A DNA stretch of 35,147 nucleotides, from the IMG/VR virus record IMGVR_UViG_2802429245_000015; one strand, 5' to 3'. The translations under genes were made by a program, and so were the position numbers. Positions within the stretch are counted from its first letter, which is position 1. Each line of letters begins with the position of its first letter. This DNA is from a virus (Duplodnaviria > Heunggongvirae > Uroviricota > Caudoviricetes). Below are positions 8,583-28,474 of this stretch, piece after piece. The notes below the pieces were generated by a model that worked only from the letters and a program-made list of their open reading frames with translations, was not told where the DNA came from and searched no databases.

Positions 8583-9643
8583 GTGGCCACCGCCTTTGTT
8601 TTCTTCGTCTTCGCTTTCATTTCCGGCATGTCCAGTGATTCAGGCGGAACCAGCGCCAGAACCGTCATCCGCCCCTGTGCGCCATCCGTCCAGGTCACCC
8701 CGGATATCAGCCAGGTGGTTTTCAGGTTCTGAATGCTGTCGTCGATATCGACAAGGCGGTTGGTCTGCCACAGCGGGCCGCTGTCGCCCTGTTCGCGCCA
8801 GCCTGCCACCGTGATTTCCGTCGTGCGGGATTCCCCCAGCATCCGGGCTTTGTACCATTCCCCGCGAATGCTGGCCCCGCCCACGGTCAGGCTGTCTTCA
8901 TTGACCAGAATGCGCGGGCGGTAACGGTTAATTTCCGGGTCTTCGGTGATGTACTGGCGACCACCCACCATCGAGGCAGGCTGGCTGTCCCACAGTTTGC
9001 CACCGGCACTGGTGGTGCCCTTGATGATGTACTGGCTGTTACGCTCCCGCCAGCTGAAGCGCCCACGGGCAGCGAGGATATTTTTCCCCAGCACCAGTGA
9101 CACACCCGCGCGAACGGAAGAGGCGCGGGTGATAATCAGGTTACCTGCGCCGTCAGACGTCAGCAGAACGCCGCGCTGTTTTGCCAGCCGGTCGAGCAGT
9201 TCAAAGCCCGTTTCACCCTGTTCCAGAACAACGGACGCAAACGCCTCCCCGGTCGGGGTTTCCGTGATGACGGTTATCCCGAACGGGCGGCAGACATCAG
9301 CCGCCACCTGTTCAAGCCGCACGCCTTTCCATTTCCCGGATGAATGCACCACAGAGCAGTCCACCAGGTCACCGGTTTTGTCGCGCCCCATGACGCGGAT
9401 CTCCACGTTATCTGCGTCATAGCTGGGGATAAAATCATCAATATACCCCGTCAGCACGGTATCCGCGCCCAGCCTGACCGTGCAGGGTTGCCCCTCACGA
9501 ATCACGCGCGGTGTCGCCGCTGACCAGCGGGTTGTCACACTGAGATCAAACTCACCGGCAATCGCCTTCAGGGAACGGCTGATGGACATTTCCGTCCAGC
9601 CCTCCCACAATTTGCTGTCAACGGTAAGAATCACGGATTCCAT
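8573..9643 (-). CDS. baseplate hub / tail protein (Mu Q-like)
   Basis: 356 aa downstream of the P-like gene. Confidence 0.55.
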   Translation of the reverse strand: MESVILTVDSKLWEGWTEMSISRSLKAIAGEFDLSVTTRWSAATPRVIREGQPCTVRLGADTVLTGYIDDFIPSYDADNVEIRVMGRDKTGDLVDCSVVHSSGKWKGVRLEQVAADVCRPFGITVITETPTGEAFASVVLEQGETGFELLDRLAKQRGVLLTSDGAGNLIITRASSVRAGVSLVLGKNILAARGRFSWRERNSQYIIKGTTSAGGKLWDSQPASMVGGRQYITEDPEINRYRPRILVNEDSLTVGGASIRGEWYKARMLGESRTTEITVAGWREQGDSGPLWQTNRLVDIDDSIQNLKTTWLISGVTWTDGAQGRMTVLALVPPESLDMPEMKAKTKKTKAVATWD

Positions 9644-12788: not shown

Positions 12789-12874
12789 GCTGTTTCTCCA
12801 GTTGCTTTATCAGGCGGAACAGCTGCCGCAGGGGCAGCTGTTCCAGGTACTGAATGCTGAATCGCTGAGACAGG

Positions 12875-17177: not shown

Positions 17178-17181
17178 GACT

Positions 17182-17231
17182 CTGCCTTTTAAAAGGCAGT
17201 TAAAAGGGCATTCACAGCGCCTTTTAACTGC
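17182..17231 (-). other. stem-loop between the major head gene and the next gene
   Basis: Perfect 18-bp palindrome ctgccttttaaaaggcag (17182-17199) overlapping a hairpin with 12-bp arms gcagttaaaagg (17196-17207) / ccttttaactgc (17220-17231). Confidence 0.4.
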
Positions 17232-17258
17232 GGGTTACAACAGATTACGGATGACGGG

Positions 17259-18161
17259 TTATGCCGGGGTGGTGATGAACGGACTGACCACGATGTCCAC
17301 ATCCTTGTACCAGATGTTGGAATCGCCGCCGTTAACCAGCATGGCGTCAATGATGCGCTTCGCGGCTGCACGGTTTTTCGGCCCCACCACAAGGGTGGTC
17401 GGGCGGATGCCCAGCGGTTCACCGTTGGTGGTCTTCATACCCAGCAGCAGATTGCTGGCCTTCTCGTAGTTCTCCGCTGTCAGTGCCGCACGGGAACCGA
17501 CGGCGGTCTGCCAGAAGCCGAAGCCCGCATTGCAGCGACCGTCCACCCCGTAAAGGAACTCGTTATTCTTGAAGGTGTGCTCGCTGTTCAGATCATCCAG
17601 GGCTTCAAACTTAAAGGCGCGTCGCGTCTGCCAGATGATGGGTTTCAGTACCTGAGAATCATCAATCAGAAACCACGGTTCCCCCTGGTCTGATGCCGGG
17701 GTGCCGACAACGTTGCTGTATGTGCCGTCGCCCAGCGGGTGGTCTTCATCAAAGAAGTTCTGACCGTCAAAACACAGGGTGTTAAACCCGGCACACAGCA
17801 GGGGGTAACACAGCTTGTCCGGGAACTCCGACGTCTGGCGGCCATAGCGTTCAGCGATAATGCTGTACTGACCAATCTGATCGTCTTCAATGTGTTCGCG
17901 TTTAACGCGGATCGAACTTTCCCAGGTTTTGTTCGCAAGGGTGTAACCATAACCGTCCAGCGTTGCCATCTGACGGGCGCTGACCCATTCCTTAATCTCC
18001 GGTAAATCTTTCATCCAGCCGTAGGTATTGGAGGCGGACGAACTCGGGATTTCAGAGGCGATGCGCTGCCACTGTGGGGTGACACCACTCAGCCCACGGG
18101 TATAAGCGGCGCTCAGACAGGTGGTCAGCGCGTGAAGGACTTCGGAAGTGACTGCTCCCAT
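17259..18161 (-). CDS. major head (capsid) protein (Mu T-like)
   Basis: 300 aa, directly after the I-like gene with a 1-nt start/stop overlap, followed by a stem-loop; size and position. Confidence 0.75.
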   Translation of the reverse strand: MGAVTSEVLHALTTCLSAAYTRGLSGVTPQWQRIASEIPSSSASNTYGWMKDLPEIKEWVSARQMATLDGYGYTLANKTWESSIRVKREHIEDDQIGQYSIIAERYGRQTSEFPDKLCYPLLCAGFNTLCFDGQNFFDEDHPLGDGTYSNVVGTPASDQGEPWFLIDDSQVLKPIIWQTRRAFKFEALDDLNSEHTFKNNEFLYGVDGRCNAGFGFWQTAVGSRAALTAENYEKASNLLLGMKTTNGEPLGIRPTTLVVGPKNRAAAKRIIDAMLVNGGDSNIWYKDVDIVVSPFITTPA

Positions 18162-19123
18162 CAGTTATTCTCCTGTTTAGGTTTAGCGGCGAGGAACTCT
18201 TCCCCGGTAATACCCATGCTGCGGCACATCGCCAGTTCGGCGTCGGTCAGTGTCTGCGCGGGTTTATCCTTGCCCTGGCTGGGCTTGTCGTTGTTCACCA
18301 GCGGCTGTGCACCTTTGGTGTACTCCGCAAACTGTTTGCGGCCTTCTTCCGTACGGCAGGTGGCAAGGAACATGTCACGGTTTGCCGGGGCCACTTTTCC
18401 GGCTTCGATGGCCGCATCCACAAGCGCTTCTGCTTCCTTCTCTTCCAGTTGCTGAAGGCGTTGTTCTGCGGTTTCGGCACGGTTCAGTGCCAGATTGTGG
18501 GTTTCCACCGGCACAAACTTCGTCAGATCAGGTGTCTGTGCGCGGTTCAGCGCCACCTGTTCGCTCTCCTGAAGTTGTTTAATGGCGGCCACGGTATCGT
18601 CCACCGTGGCAGATTCAGCCAGCCCAAGCAGGCCGGTGATTTGCACAGGTACTGTCATCGGGTTTTTCTCCGTATTCAGTGCAGGAAAATCCAGGTTAGG
18701 TTTGTTGGTCAGCCCGACGCTGGACAGGCGCGTCACCACACCGTCTGCGTCAAAGAAAAACGCCGGGCTGTAATAGCGGTAACGGCGTTCGCTCAGCATC
18801 CACCGGGCGTACTCGCTCCAGACAACACGGCCTTCAATGGTGCCGCTGTCCGTCACGCGCAGTTCTTCCACCCAGCCATACGCCGGGGCTTCATCACCGC
18901 GTTGCCCTTTAATTTCGGTGGCGTGTTCAATGTCCACCGGAATTTTGATGTCGGACGAACGGGTGACCACCTCATGCGGATTGCGGTTAATCCACGTCCG
19001 GCCATCGCGCCCGGTGAACTCACCCGCAGGGACGAGTTCAAGCCATTCCGGCAGTTGAGCAGGTGTCAGCTCAGGGATGGGTTCTGGCAGGGAAAAACAC
19101 AGCGCCAGCAGTTCCGGTTGCAT
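18161..19123 (-). CDS. head maturation protease/scaffold (Mu I-like)
   Basis: 320 aa with a coiled-coil, charged C-terminal half; position upstream of the capsid gene. Confidence 0.65.
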   Translation of the reverse strand: MQPELLALCFSLPEPIPELTPAQLPEWLELVPAGEFTGRDGRTWINRNPHEVVTRSSDIKIPVDIEHATEIKGQRGDEAPAYGWVEELRVTDSGTIEGRVVWSEYARWMLSERRYRYYSPAFFFDADGVVTRLSSVGLTNKPNLDFPALNTEKNPMTVPVQITGLLGLAESATVDDTVAAIKQLQESEQVALNRAQTPDLTKFVPVETHNLALNRAETAEQRLQQLEEKEAEALVDAAIEAGKVAPANRDMFLATCRTEEGRKQFAEYTKGAQPLVNNDKPSQGKDKPAQTLTDAELAMCRSMGITGEEFLAAKPKQENN

Positions 19124-19172
19124 GTCAGTCTCCGTCGTTTGGGGTTACCGACGGTCAGTATGCGGAAGGCAG

Positions 19173-19198
19173 AAAAAAAGCCGGATTTACCGGCTTCA
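19173..19198 (-). terminator. hairpin plus A/T-run element (intrinsic terminator and/or late-promoter motif), copy 1
   Basis: aaaaaaagccggatttaccggcttca, identical to 26894-26919. On the minus strand this reads gaagccggtaaatccggc followed by T7. Confidence 0.5.
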
Positions 19199-19337
19199 CT
19201 GAAAACGGGAAGAACACCCCCTTCAAAACCCCTTCAAAAACGCCACAGCATCTTCAAAAACGTCTGAGTGCACATTCACGCCATCAGAATAAAAAACGCG
19301 TTTCTGATGCGTTTCAGGGGGATTTACGGCGGGAGGG

Positions 19338-20102
19338 TTACTCACTGTCAAAACGGGCCTGTTTTGTCGCCAGCTGGCGCGCCAGCTCCTGCTCACGGTT
19401 TATGCCGGGATTGTAGTTCCAGCCCGGATCAATCCCTTCCGGCACATCTTCCTCTTCGCCCGTGCGTTTGTTCACCCAGCGGACAGTTCTGATTTCCGGC
19501 GCTTCGGTATGAATGGTGCCCTGTGCCGCCAGTTGCGCATACTCACCACGGCTGACCTGACGAATGGTGCATTTGCAGCCCCAGCCGTTAGGCGCAAAAT
19601 GCGTCTGCCAGAACGGGTGGTCTGTCGGCAGACACAGACGCGCCCATTTCACATGCTCCGCCCGGTGCTCACGGGATGGCCCCAGCTCATAAATCAGATA
19701 CGGCATGGCCCGCTTTGTCCGCTGAATGCGTTCCCACTGGCCCGCCGCGCGGGCGGTGCGCATGTTGGTGTCAAAAATCGTGCGGAGGCGGCGGTCGCTG
19801 CCCAGTTGCACGGTGCGGGTTTCACCCGTCAGCGGATCATCCATCTCCTGTACGCCCCACCATCCGCGTTTTATCAGCAACGGTTGCAGCATCTCCCGGA
19901 ACTCGCTGAACGTCTGCCCGCTTTGCAGGGCGTCTTCCACAAGGGCTTTCACATCCGACAACAAATCCAGTTGCAGCATTTTTGCCACGGTGAAGCTGTT
20001 CCGGTGTTCTTCCCGCCATACATCCCGGTAATCAAAACCGGGGCGCAGCTTCTTCGCCTTCAGCCACGCCAGCGCCTCTTTCGGGATGAGGGTTTCACGC
20101 AT
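19338..20102 (-). CDS. head morphogenesis protein (Mu F-like)
   Basis: ATG at 20100-20102 (MRETLIPKEALAWLK...) overlapping the portal stop; the track ORF extends 19 codons further upstream; position after the portal. Confidence 0.65.
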   Translation of the reverse strand: MRETLIPKEALAWLKAKKLRPGFDYRDVWREEHRNSFTVAKMLQLDLLSDVKALVEDALQSGQTFSEFREMLQPLLIKRGWWGVQEMDDPLTGETRTVQLGSDRRLRTIFDTNMRTARAAGQWERIQRTKRAMPYLIYELGPSREHRAEHVKWARLCLPTDHPFWQTHFAPNGWGCKCTIRQVSRGEYAQLAAQGTIHTEAPEIRTVRWVNKRTGEEEDVPEGIDPGWNYNPGINREQELARQLATKQARFDSE

Positions 20103-21666
20103 GGCCGGTGTCCCCCAGCGCACGCGCCTTAAAGCACACCTCCGCCAGTTGCAGGGCAAAGTCGTCCGCGTTCAGCGTTTCCTGAAGCTCAGGCAGGCGT
20201 TTCAGAAAGTCATCAAAACTGTCGCATTCCTGCGCCAGTGTCAGCACCGGGTTCGTGAACGCCTCGCCGGTTTTCTGCCAGTCACGCAGGGCATCATCCA
20301 CCATCTGTGCCAGTTCGTCGGGGTGTTCCCGGTTCAGGGCGACGCGCTCGCGGTTCATCGCCATATCACCCGGCATCCCGGCAGAAACCGGATGCAGAAC
20401 ATCAGCCCCGTCGTCCGGTTCAGCCAGGCCGAACCGGTCCCGCAGCTCCGATTCCTGAACCCGCATCCCCCGGTCAATCAGCGGCACCAGAGCATCTGTC
20501 AGCGCCTTCAGATCTTCCGCTTCACTGATACGCAGAACAACACGGGGGTAGTGCGCCTGTGGCCCGTAATTGGCCTCGATATAGGGACGCACCAGATATT
20601 CATTCAGCGTGTTAGCCAGCTGTCGCGCGTCCCAGCGCACAATGTCCATGCGCACCTGATTGTGCACGTCCGCCTGTGAGCGCGAACTGCCGTTATCCGT
20701 GGTCATGGTCTGCCCCAGCACGGCTTTACTGATTTGCGCATCACACCATTCCGCCATTTCACGGAACAGTGCGCCGCCGTTATTCCTGCTGGCGGTTTCC
20801 TTCATCTCCAGTTGCATGGACTGCGGAATGGCACACCCGGCATCCGAGGCAATGGAGGCAATCGCATCAATCAGCACGCGGATTTGCTCCTCCGTGGCGT
20901 TGGGACCGTATTTCCCCACCGTAACCGGAATGCCGAATTTTTCCGCAAATGCCCACCAGTCGCGCACGGTAAAGGATTTCAGCATGTACATCACCGCCAC
21001 CAGACGGGCCAGACCGTTACGCAGCGGCAGACCGGATTTCAGACGCGGCTGGTGAACAATGAATTTTCCCGGTGTCAGCGGTACGCCATCCACCGGTTCA
21101 TCGTCAGTCAGCAGGCGGAACTGGCGCAGCGTGGGTTTTTCGGCTTTCAGAAAACGGGGATCAACCCACTCATAATCACGGGGCACCCAGTGGTTGTTGC
21201 GGGTGTTCCACAAAATTTCACAGACCGCCACGCCTTTTCCCAGCCCGTCGAGCAGATCAAACATCAGCTCAGGGATTTGCGGTGCCTCCATCAGTGCACG
21301 GATGGCGTCCGCCAGTTGCACGTCAGCATCGTCATCACTGGCGGCCACCACCACCGGTTCGATACCCGCCACCGTCAGCTTGCGGGTGCGCAGTACCGAG
21401 GCGTAATGCAAATCGCGTTCTTCCATCTCTTCAGCAAGGATAAAAAAATCACGCGTGATGCCGTCAGTAGCATTGCGCAGAATGCCTGCCAGCCTGCCGG
21501 GGTTCAGCCCGGAGGCGACGCTGATACCCGGCGAGGCCGAACGCACACCGGCATGACGCGGACGGGCCTGTGCTTCGTTGAGCGCCTCTTTTTTCAGCGT
21601 GTCTTCCTCACCGGTTGCCGGGTTCAGCAGACGGCGAACGGCCCCGGCCAGTTGTTTCAGGTTCAC
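20095..21666 (-). CDS. portal protein (Mu H/gp29-like)
   Basis: 523 aa immediately downstream of the large terminase with overlapping stop/start. Confidence 0.7.
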   Translation of the reverse strand: MNLKQLAGAVRRLLNPATGEEDTLKKEALNEAQARPRHAGVRSASPGISVASGLNPGRLAGILRNATDGITRDFFILAEEMEERDLHYASVLRTRKLTVAGIEPVVVAASDDDADVQLADAIRALMEAPQIPELMFDLLDGLGKGVAVCEILWNTRNNHWVPRDYEWVDPRFLKAEKPTLRQFRLLTDDEPVDGVPLTPGKFIVHQPRLKSGLPLRNGLARLVAVMYMLKSFTVRDWWAFAEKFGIPVTVGKYGPNATEEQIRVLIDAIASIASDAGCAIPQSMQLEMKETASRNNGGALFREMAEWCDAQISKAVLGQTMTTDNGSSRSQADVHNQVRMDIVRWDARQLANTLNEYLVRPYIEANYGPQAHYPRVVLRISEAEDLKALTDALVPLIDRGMRVQESELRDRFGLAEPDDGADVLHPVSAGMPGDMAMNRERVALNREHPDELAQMVDDALRDWQKTGEAFTNPVLTLAQECDSFDDFLKRLPELQETLNADDFALQLAEVCFKARALGDTGHA

Positions 21667-23776: not shown

Positions 23777-23913
23777 GTGTGCCCTCCTGTTGCTCACTAC
23801 GCTGTAAACTTTCGTATGCAGATTTCAGTGCGCCGTTCTGGATTTCCCGCCATGTCAGGTTATGCGCCAGACGGCGGAGTTCATCACGGGACGCTTTACT
23901 TATCGGATTCTTT

Positions 23914-26241: not shown

Positions 26242-26838
26242 TCACCCCCGCGTGGCGGACATGATGCCTAAAGGGGTATCGATGATTTCCAGACAGGCGT
26301 CGGTCAGCTTTTCCATGCGGTTAAACCAGCCGTTCAGGTATTTTCCCTGGGCGGGGTTTGATTTGATGATGTCGGCATAAAAGCGGGAACGACGGACAAT
26401 GCAACGGGCCAGCAGCCAGTCCGGGGTGGACAGACTCACGGCCTTACGGGTACGCGGACCAATGATGCCGTCAGCATCCACATCAGCGGCTTCCTGCAAA
26501 ATCCTGATGGCTTTTTTAACGCCATGCTGAACCGCCGCATCGAACACAAACATCGCCACGCCATCAGGCCACTGGTCACATCCGGCAGGCAGCCAGTAAT
26601 CGCGCCAGTAAATCTGCGCAACCTGTTCGCGGGTTAAATCCTTAATGCGGGTATCCGGTTTGCCGTCGCCGTTGACATCGGTTTTGCCGTCAATCACACC
26701 GTCGCGGCGGTCAGAAATGCCGTATTTGGTTTCGCCGCCACGGTCAGTGGGGTCATTGACATAAACGCCTTCGATATCAGGACGCAGAATAAAATTCAGC
26801 GCATGCTCAAAGGCCGGGGAGAATTTTTGATTTTCCAT
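26242..26838 (-). CDS. endolysin, glycoside hydrolase family 108 with C-terminal peptidoglycan-binding region
   Basis: 198 aa; motif EGVYVNDPTDRGGETKYGI is the GH108 N-terminal signature; ATG at 26836-26838. Confidence 0.8.
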   Translation of the reverse strand: MENQKFSPAFEHALNFILRPDIEGVYVNDPTDRGGETKYGISDRRDGVIDGKTDVNGDGKPDTRIKDLTREQVAQIYWRDYWLPAGCDQWPDGVAMFVFDAAVQHGVKKAIRILQEAADVDADGIIGPRTRKAVSLSTPDWLLARCIVRRSRFYADIIKSNPAQGKYLNGWFNRMEKLTDACLEIIDTPLGIMSATRG

Positions 26839-26849
26839 AAAAGCACCTG

Positions 26850-26878
26850 TGAAGCAGATTTAAACGTGGTCTGCTTCA
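26850..26878 (-). promoter_or_regulatory. dyad/hairpin in the endolysin leader
   Basis: tgaagcaga (26850-26858) / tctgcttca (26870-26878) with an 11-nt loop, ending 9 nt upstream of the endolysin Shine-Dalgarno/ATG. Confidence 0.4.
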
Positions 26879-26893
26879 TGGTGCCGGAGGCAT

Positions 26894-26919
26894 AAAAAAA
26901 GCCGGATTTACCGGCTTCA
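26894..26919 (-). terminator. hairpin plus A/T-run element, copy 2 (intrinsic terminator after mor, comparable to Mu t9.2)
   Basis: Identical 26-mer to 19173-19198, starting 5 bp after the mor stop. Confidence 0.55.
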
Positions 26920-26923
26920 TTGA

Positions 26924-27993: not shown

Positions 27994-28233
27994 ATGTCTG
28001 TAGAAAACAATGCGTCAATCACTTTTAATCTGGTTTCGGGTCTGATGTTGAAACTTGTCCAGAACAAGACTCTGACAAAGGGGGAAGCTCAATCCATACT
28101 GGCCTCAGCAATTCTTGAAAACATTCAGAACCGGGAGGGCGTTACGGATCTTGATCTTCATGCGCTTCGTCTGAAACTTGCTATGTCTGATTTCAGCGTT
28201 GAAAAAGAGCCTCCACAAGACGCTCAGGCGTAA
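27994..28233 (+). CDS. hypothetical 79-aa protein on the opposite strand to the early operon
   Basis: ATG at 27994 with GGAG 5 nt upstream; fills a 270-bp gap with no minus-strand ORF longer than 18 codons; AT-richer than flanks; 3' end overlaps the convergent 93-aa gene by 41 bp. Confidence 0.4.
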   Translation: MSVENNASITFNLVSGLMLKLVQNKTLTKGEAQSILASAILENIQNREGVTDLDLHALRLKLAMSDFSVEKEPPQDAQA

Positions 28234-28474
28234 TCACGTCTGATGGTTTAAGCCCCAGCCTGCGGCGAATAAATTCGTCGCGGGCTTTTTTGTTATCCAG
28301 TGAAACTTCATCTGCAATAATATTAATTTCATGCTGGATAATATTCACAGTAACACGCGCAGACAGCCCTTCACGGATAGCAATATCAATAATATCGCGC
28401 ATACGCTCAAGCATTTTAGCCTTCACCAGTTCTTCATCCAGATCTTTGGGGATAAATGTGATTTCATCGTTCAT
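28193..28474 (-). CDS. hypothetical 93-aa protein
   Basis: ORF in the AT-richer segment; charged, helical. Confidence 0.45.
   Translation of the reverse strand: MNDEITFIPKDLDEELVKAKMLERMRDIIDIAIREGLSARVTVNIIQHEINIIADEVSLDNKKARDEFIRRRLGLKPSDVITPERLVEALFQR

Follow-up and report, generated by a model that had tools for sequence, protein, structure and literature searches.

Two identical 26-bp elements before the late operons of a Mu-like prophage resemble the Mor-dependent promoter Pm and carry a predicted intrinsic terminator

Results

One 26-bp sequence precedes both the lysis and the head operon

The 35,147 nucleotides analysed here, referred to as the window, constitute a Mu-like prophage encoded on the - strand. 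Its transposase genes A and B lie near 31-34 kb, and further genes are those for GemA, Mor, the endolysin, the terminase, the portal, F, I, T and the tail. Two of its gene boundaries contain the 26-mer AAAAAAAGCCGGATTTACCGGCTTCA (+ strand), which reads TGAAGCCGGTAAATCCGGCTTTTTTT at both places on the - strand, the coding strand of the prophage (Table 1). Copy 1 starts 4 nt past the stop codon of the Mor-family gene and precedes a GH108 endolysin gene (ATG at 26838), whereas copy 2 lies between a gene similar to Mu F (stop at 19338) and the I gene (ATG at 19123). The first-pass annotation had given the distances to these two start codons as 42 and 37 bp, which is correct from the end of the extended conserved stretch; from the 26-mer itself they are 55 and 49 nt. 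We predict that copy 1 drives a lysis, packaging and portal operon of which the endolysin gene is the first gene, and that copy 2 drives a head operon, probably including the tail genes too, that begins with I.

The perfect identity that had drawn attention to these sites is exact, and the window contains only these two copies. Allowing up to three mismatches, no further copy was found on either strand, and 100 dinucleotide-preserving shuffles yielded no match, with none expected by chance. A weight matrix built from 19 related contexts likewise returned just the two sites, at 74 and 72 bits, with everything else in the window scoring -9.6 or lower. Neither of these searches revealed a third or fourth copy that might correspond to Mu PP or Pmom, no similar module occupies the coding-strand gaps at 23798-23913, 17178-17258 and 12789-12874, and an Rfam scan of the whole window at gathering thresholds matched no family. 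Adjacent inverted repeats, GTTAAAAGG...CCCTTTTAAC and CTGCCTTTTAAAAGGCAG, fill the 81 nt that follow the major head gene T; neither has a T-run, and they may form an mRNA-stabilising or attenuating structure.

On the - strand both copies are predicted to fold as RNA into an 8-bp stem with a 5-nt loop followed by U7 (-12.6 and -12.8 kcal/mol; z of -3.6 and -3.4 relative to shuffles), and a simple terminator scan picks up both. A G+C-rich stem-loop followed by a U-tract downstream of a gene is the canonical anatomy of an intrinsic terminator, the resemblance that the first-pass annotation had pointed out and that gains from an annotated terminator at the Mu homologue and from stand-alone copies in other genomes, both described below. 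Of the 13 bases 3' of the T-run, 9 are equal between the copies (ATGCCTCCGGCAC versus CTGCCTTCCGCAT).

Table 1. Features of the window that bear on the 26-bp element and its surroundings. Promoter positions are in a register transferred from Mu.
Feature	Position	Strand	Promoter position	Remarks
Copy 1 of the 26-mer	26894..26919	-		Predicted Pm-type Mor box and intrinsic-terminator hairpin, from alignment with Mu Pm
Left arm of hairpin, copy 1	26917-26911	-	-47..-41	
Loop of hairpin, copy 1	26910-26906	-	-40..-36	
Right arm of hairpin, copy 1	26905-26899	-	-35..-29	
T-run, copy 1	26900-26894	-	-30..-24	
Counterpart of the Mor dyad, copy 1	26906..26921	-		AATGA-AGCCGG-TAAAT; in Mu, AGTAA-AGCCGG-TTAAT
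Candidate -10 of the lysis-operon promoter, CACCAT	26878..26883	-	-13..-8	10 nt past T-run, spacing as for TATCCT in Mu
Predicted lysis-operon transcription start	near 26870	-		Mu Pm register
Leader hairpin, lysis	26842..26885	-		5' arm 26885-26870; 3' arm 26858-26842
Copy 2 of the 26-mer	19173..19198	-		Identical to copy 1; before head protease/scaffold gene I
Candidate -10 of the head-operon promoter, CATACT	19157..19162	-	-13..-8	Register as copy 1 and Mu Pm
Predicted head-operon transcription start	near 19149	-		Mu Pm register
Leader hairpin, I promoter	19132..19154	-		CCGTCG...CGACGG
Mor-family transcription activator, 149 aa	26924..27373	-		Pfam Mor 7.9e-31; PHROG 532 'late transcriptional activator' 1e-40
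GH108-type endolysin	26242..26838	-		Pfam Glyco_hydro_108 1e-23 and PG_binding_3
Mu F-like gene	19338..20159	-		
Mu I-type head protease/scaffold gene	18161..19123	-		Pfam Mu-like_Pro 1.8e-44; PHROG 328
Three direct repeats upstream of copy 2	19221-19265	-		19260-19252, 19240-19232, 19228-19221
Weaker hairpin with T6	19291-19314	-		
Inverted repeats after gene T	17185-17235	-		
79-aa ORF	27994-28233	+		
Strong terminator after the 79-aa ORF	28257-28286	+		13-bp stem and T5

The element matches the Mor-dependent middle promoter of Mu

The Mor-dependent middle promoter Pm of phage Mu, TAAAGCCGGTTAATCCGGCTTTTTTT, matches the window element almost base for base, with 24 of the 26 bases equal in the same register. 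Where Mu has cagTAAAGCCGGTTAATCCGGCTTTTTTT followed by 10 nt, TATCCT and g, the window has the - strand 26-mer followed by 10 nt, CACCAT (copy 1) or CATACT (copy 2), and G. In the Mu genome record AF083977, Pm (cagTAAAGCCGGTTAATCCGGCTTTTTTTacgtcctcaaTATCCTg) is annotated at 9163-9233 and holds within it a TransTermHP-predicted terminator at 9179-9200, 9 nt past the mor stop; in Mu as in the window, then, the hairpin and T-run are read as a terminator on the same strand. Further likenesses are an orthologous Mor, the position directly after mor (copy 1), the T7 run, and a -10 in the same place with no -35. The two differ in the loop (TAAAT in the window, TTAAT in Mu), at position 2 (G versus A) and in the leader hairpin, which is much stronger in the window. 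They also differ in use: the single Mu copy drives the middle operon (E18-E20 and C), whereas the two copies in the window are predicted to drive the late operons (those beginning with the endolysin gene and with I) directly, a difference that we attribute to the lack of a C gene. With the TransTermHP annotation, we take the Pm hairpin to be the Mu early terminator 't9.2'; our literature search found no paper stating so, nor any usable account of Mor-driven late promoters in Mu-like prophages.

The Mor site of Mu Pm is a 16-bp imperfect dyad at -51 to -36, centred at -43.5, in a promoter that has a -10 and no -35 (Howe laboratory; PMC4390567, PMC4287176), and bases just 3' of this dyad are also critical for activation (PMC2582627). 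Taking the register of the dyad from PMC4287176 and PMC4390567, we placed the Mu +1 at position 1225 of the Mu locus (L058), where the published mutant names -57G and -54A fall on G and A. By homology to Mu Pm, copy 1 would then span about -49 to -24 of the lysis-operon promoter. In its published form, 5-bp repeats around a 6-bp spacer, the dyad is weakly symmetric in the window (AATGA / TAAAT), and a 2025 cryo-EM preprint describes a Mor tetramer over about (nearly) three helical turns; Mor may read either a dimer dyad or a tetramer footprint.

The candidate -10 hexamers fit a pattern kept among relatives, C-A-n-n-n-T-G, with column frequencies of 0.85 for C, 0.97 for A, 0.95 for T and 0.92 for the next G, and CATACT of copy 2 also lines up with CAAACT of Mu PI. 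Between mor and lys, and between F and I, we found no sigma-70 consensus, no -35 and no alternative promoter candidate. The window has the sequence features of a Pm-type promoter, namely a Mor gene in the same element, a Mor box in register and a -10 with no -35. The first-pass annotation had suspected that the sequence might also carry the late-promoter or activator site, and the near-identity to the Pm Mor box, with a -10-like hexamer at the same spacing, speaks for that suspicion. We consider it very likely, from this homology, that both copies are Mor-dependent promoter elements.

Mor is the only member of its family in the window

The window Mor protein is 61% identical to Mu Mor and 31% identical to Mu C, and its recognition helix is nearly identical to that of Mu Mor (VTYKTVYKAIKRMRRL in the window, VTFNTVYKAIRRMRRL in Mu). 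tblastn with Mu Mor, Mu C and the window protein detected no second Mor/C gene in the 35-kb window; the Mu C query found only the Mor gene, at 31% identity. The C-box sequences of Mu Plys and PI are absent from the window as well, so that neither the activator gene nor the box (at -52 to -34) of a C-dependent late promoter was found. The lack of a second family member points to a prophage without a C tier, in which Mor is the presumed reader of both 26-mer copies.

The recognition helix is invariant across the clade of relatives. No Mor residue cleanly separates phages with a TAAAT loop from those with a TTAAT loop; within KAI(K/R)RM, Arg occurs with TTAAT only and Lys with both loop types.

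The first-pass annotation had equated the two sites with Mu Plys and PI. This holds for their positions, before the endolysin gene and between the F/G genes and I, but the sequence is that of Mu Pm, so that the predicted activator is Mor and not C. In Mu, Plys and PI have C-boxes (for example ...ATAGCATAACCCCAGATTTTCCC...) where the window has Mor boxes, and the terminators predicted there are separate hairpins upstream of the promoter, not part of the activator box. At PI the likeness extends to the flanks, since the F-I spacer of the window can be aligned with the G-I spacer of Mu to either side of the box, upstream through the repeats TTTTTGAAG/TTTTTAAAC, which match the Mu region with an annotated gyrase cut site, and downstream through CCGCAnACTGAC and a leader hairpin. 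With homologous flanks around a different box of roughly 26 bp, the two lineages share a promoter scaffold and differ in the activator box.

Two other features of the F-I spacer are recorded here. Upstream of copy 2 stand three direct repeats of (T)TTTTGAAG, which align with the TTTTTAAAC repeats found close to the annotated gyrase cut site in the G-I spacer of Mu, and also with the corresponding region in the relatives L138 and L139; they are probably the equivalent of the Mu central strong gyrase site. About 24 nt past the F stop there is a weaker hairpin with T6 (AAACGC...GCGTTTTTT) that is kept in close relatives. Its fold is ambiguous, RNAfold preferring CAUCAGAA/UUCUGAUG at -8.1 kcal/mol (z -1.3); together with copy 2 it would give the F-I spacer two successive terminator-like hairpins.

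The core is invariant after mor and decays before I

A search for the 26-mer in other Mu-like prophages had been proposed, and the sequence is present there. A first scan of viral contigs for the exact 26-mer gave 57 stretches, often two per contig and with very different flanks. Such a sample is biased by construction, and we used protein-anchored sampling instead. Anchoring on Mor gave 60 loci with Mor 63-99% identical, and all 58 viral loci with enough sequence contained exactly one GCCGGT[A/T]AATCCGGCTTTTTT core downstream of mor. The core lies 7-8 nt from the mor stop, or 340-550 nt when a small gene is inserted, and in every Mor-anchored relative examined it sits immediately before a GH108 endolysin gene. 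Among 39 non-redundant Mor-anchored loci, 24 of the 25 core positions are 100% conserved, the lone variable base being an A or T in the loop, while the 20 nt upstream are at background (33-50% conserved); downstream, the pattern aTGCCTg...CAnnnTG is kept.

The inserted small gene, present in most of the relatives L071-L118 and absent from the window, is a single extra gene (103-173 aa) that fits exactly into the gap from mor to the module. It comes in at least four unrelated types (PHROG 38744, PHROG 36430 or without a family), which have predicted signal peptides or membrane helices, and the site resembles a slot for variable cargo where the early operon ends. The window itself has a 79-aa ORF without a PHROG match on the opposite strand, between early genes and gemA and followed by a strong terminator; this ORF may represent cargo transcribed in the opposite direction.

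Anchoring on the I protein gave a different picture. All close relatives have the element before I, with the full 26-mer, but in relatives with about 60% I identity this copy decays in a graded way. Some T-runs are interrupted (T4AT4; T5CT3), another copy combines a G·U-weakened stem with a broken T-run, and one (L138) has a compensated stem, GGCGG...CCGCC with TTTCTTCC. In several phages, L139 being one that lacks the right arm, the right arm and the T-run are gone altogether, while CAGTGAAGCCGGTTAATCC, the published Mor site, and a -10 CACACT are kept, as are the left arm, the loop and CAGT just upstream. The 15-mer left half is too short as a sole probe, giving more than 120 viral hits that are mostly chance matches inside unrelated coding sequence, and we used only those matches that are followed by an I-type leader. 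Across non-redundant contexts, an intact hairpin with at least seven T is found in 27 of 27 lys-type copies and in 3 of 8 I-type copies (Fisher p = 1.7e-4).

These patterns bear on whether the element is an intrinsic terminator and nothing else, duplicated or homogenised by gene conversion, that ends transcription of the early operon ahead of lys and of the lysis/packaging operon ahead of I, with the late promoters elsewhere or under another factor. Such a terminator would account for the hairpin and U7 on the coding strand right after a stop codon at copy 1, for the terminator annotated at the homologous Mu hairpin and for the occurrence of the same hairpin and T-run on their own in unrelated phyla. 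A plain terminator tolerates compensated changes in stem and loop, however, and would drift by them, whereas the core is fixed between randomised flanks in phages whose Mor proteins diverge to 63% identity; invariance of this kind argues for sequence-specific recognition. Nor would a terminator be expected to lose its right arm and T-run and yet retain the left arm, the loop and the upstream CAGT. Given also the homology to an experimentally defined Mor-dependent promoter, the conserved -10 at a fixed distance and the failure to find any other promoter candidate or activator for the late operons, we regard a terminator-only element as improbable.

The converse possibility is that the element is a Mor-dependent promoter with little or no terminating activity, its symmetry and T-tract serving protein-DNA contacts such as symmetric or tetrameric Mor binding, DNA bending or contacts in the -35 region. 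The stem of the lys-type copies is invariant and shows no covariation, and promoter needs alone could have conserved the right arm and T-run there; the requirement for bases directly 3' of the Mor dyad in Mu Pm (PMC2582627) and the tetramer footprint of the cryo-EM preprint are in keeping with this. Against it, related I-type promoters manage without the right arm and T-run that lys-type copies never lose, which makes these parts look dispensable to the promoter, the single compensated stem change, in I-type L138, preserves pairing, and the hairpin with U7 is a thermodynamically good terminator that stands alone in unrelated genomes. We therefore think it unlikely that the element is a promoter only. 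Termination by the two copies is, on the strength of these predicted folds and conservation patterns, likely, and we put nearly the same confidence in the preferred reading that one stretch of DNA serves both as Mor-dependent promoter and as terminator.

In enterobacterial genomes the module occurs as a unit

A scan of one genome per species with the 24-mer core found 15 Enterobacterales contigs, all with the full module, and 6 Bacteroidota/Ignavibacteria contigs with the core as a hairpin and T-run without the rest of the module. The latter six (L149, L156, L160, L161, L166 and L168) have the exact 24-mer GAAGCCGGT(A/T)AATCCGGCTTTTTT and appear to represent independent reuse of the hairpin as an ordinary terminator; because of them, the 24-mer alone does not identify the module. 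These prophages are present in 58 of the 5,426 complete E. coli genomes searched, STEC strains included.

The same data address a mobile or recombinogenic repeat of the REP or MITE type, or a site for gyrase, IHF or a small HTH protein, unrelated to Mor. The GCCGG stems superficially resemble enterobacterial REP sequences, and copy 2 adjoins the stretch that aligns with the Mu strong gyrase site region. Each phage has exactly two copies, though, whose operon boundaries and orientation do not vary; the enterobacterial genome matches all carry the full module, with none dispersed in host DNA; and copy 1 is without a gyrase-site-like flank. A dispersed REP/MITE-like repeat was rejected on copy number and context, and an origin of this general kind is very improbable.

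A leader hairpin would pair the promoter region with the ribosome site

A second hairpin lies between the T-run and the start codon in every context, in a fixed register and with variable sequence. In the lysis leader the 5' arm spans the -10 hexamer to the predicted +1, the 3' arm spans the Shine-Dalgarno sequence AGGTG (26848-26844), and the whole region folds at -33.8 kcal/mol (z -5.8). In the I leader the 3' arm abuts or overlaps the Shine-Dalgarno sequence GGAG (19133-19130), and a counterpart with changed sequence is found in relatives and in Mu PI. The 3' arm in relatives covers the Shine-Dalgarno sequence and, in many phages, the AUG too, and the pairs themselves differ between phages (for example, GGCA/TGCC versus GGAA/TTCC).

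For 30 non-redundant contexts, RNA starting after the T-run folds at a mean of -21 kcal/mol (mean z -3.7), as against a mean of -5 kcal/mol when the predicted +1 is its first base. For the ribosome-binding site, the mean unpaired probability rises moderately, from 0.39 in the read-through RNA to 0.55 in RNA from the predicted +1, in leaders that are phylogenetically related, so that a Wilcoxon p-value overstates their independence. In 22 lys leaders, all 230 of 230 predicted pairs touching positions -14 to +2 of the start codon involve a partner that lies 5' of the predicted +1, a start site that is itself placed by homology with Mu Pm; since every such pair reaches 5' of it, the helix would form in read-through RNA only. 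On these predicted folds, we judge occlusion of the ribosome site by the leader in read-through RNA to be somewhat more probable than not.

The Mu Pm and PI leaders (L058 1218-1251 and 10027-10050) also contain inverted repeats, GTGATGA...TCATCAT and CTGCTCA...TGAGCAG, in which the 5' arm ends at or near +1 and the 3' arm reaches the start-codon region. A read-through-only hairpin may be a general, undescribed trait of activator-dependent promoters of the Mu family.

Discussion

By its sequence the element is of a known kind, a Mor-dependent promoter with an embedded terminator, found here in a lineage with a shortened cascade and with a probable translational safeguard, predicted from RNA folds, attached to it. 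We propose that each copy is the upstream half of a Pm-type Mor promoter and that the same DNA encodes an intrinsic terminator. At the DNA level, the binding site of Mor, at about -51 to -36, would consist of the left arm and loop together with about 2-3 further bases on the upstream side; Mor would bring sigma-70 RNA polymerase to a promoter with a -10 and no -35, and transcription would start about 7-8 nt past the -10 hexamer. Polymerases coming from upstream (at copy 1 those of the early operon, whose last gene is mor, and at copy 2 those of the lysis-to-F operon) would transcribe the hairpin and U7 and stop just before the -10. In any read-through RNA, the first gene would have its Shine-Dalgarno and start region paired with the -10/+1 region, which would block its translation, whereas RNA begun at the Mor promoter would be free of the 5' arm and hence translatable.

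This mechanism would explain why 26 bp are identical at two places. Mor would fix the left arm and loop, the right arm must pair with the left, and the T-run would be held both because termination needs it and because it adjoins the Mor site in a stretch also needed for Mu Pm activity. The decay of I-type copies beside the integrity of lys-type copies is what a dual function predicts: the Mor half would be required at both promoters, while the terminator half would be indispensable only where a constitutively early operon meets the lysis genes and dispensable between two co-regulated late operons. Without a C gene, Mor would turn on the lysis/packaging and head (and tail) operons directly, in a cascade of two tiers instead of the three of Mu.

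The predicted logic of the leader has a precedent in phage T4, where the ribosome-binding site of e (lysozyme), soc, 49 and I-TevI is sequestered by a hairpin whose 5' arm contains a late promoter (McPheeters et al. 1986, reviewed in PMC3014915). As at T4 gene e, long upstream transcripts would pair the Shine-Dalgarno sequence and AUG of a lysis gene, and a stage-specific promoter within the 5' arm would give transcripts without that arm. The phage family, the sequences and the polymerase specificity (sigma-70 with Mor versus gp55) are unrelated, and the hairpin in the window, known from predicted folds, comes on top of a terminator. The 'fold-back inhibition' of read-through transcripts in IS10 and IS50 is a further analogue. 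Our most inclusive reading, which we offer tentatively and at slightly less than even confidence, is that an enterobacterial clade of Mu-like phages without C, in Escherichia, Salmonella, Klebsiella, Raoultella, Kluyvera, Serratia, Brenneria and other hosts, relies on just two Pm-type Mor promoters for its late development. Both would act as three-in-one insulator cassettes in which the Mor box doubles as terminator and the -10/+1 region as silencing 5' arm, with a safeguard like that of T4 gene e that arose independently and is fused with activator site and terminator within about 85 bp.

Provided that it behaves as predicted, the combination of a terminator, an activator-dependent promoter and a read-through-proof ribosome site could serve as a tight, insulated expression part. 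Relatives with the left half only are a natural experiment that separates Mor binding from the terminator half, useful for the question of what Mor reads, a dimer dyad or a tetramer footprint. The identity of 26 bp at two places would be explained by a Mor box that must also fold as a terminator, and not by recent duplication. One known activator would thereby be assigned the two late operons of Mu-like prophages in a widespread, unstudied group, which would make the induction programme of these prophages predictable, from the early operon to Mor and from Mor to lysis/packaging and head/tail.
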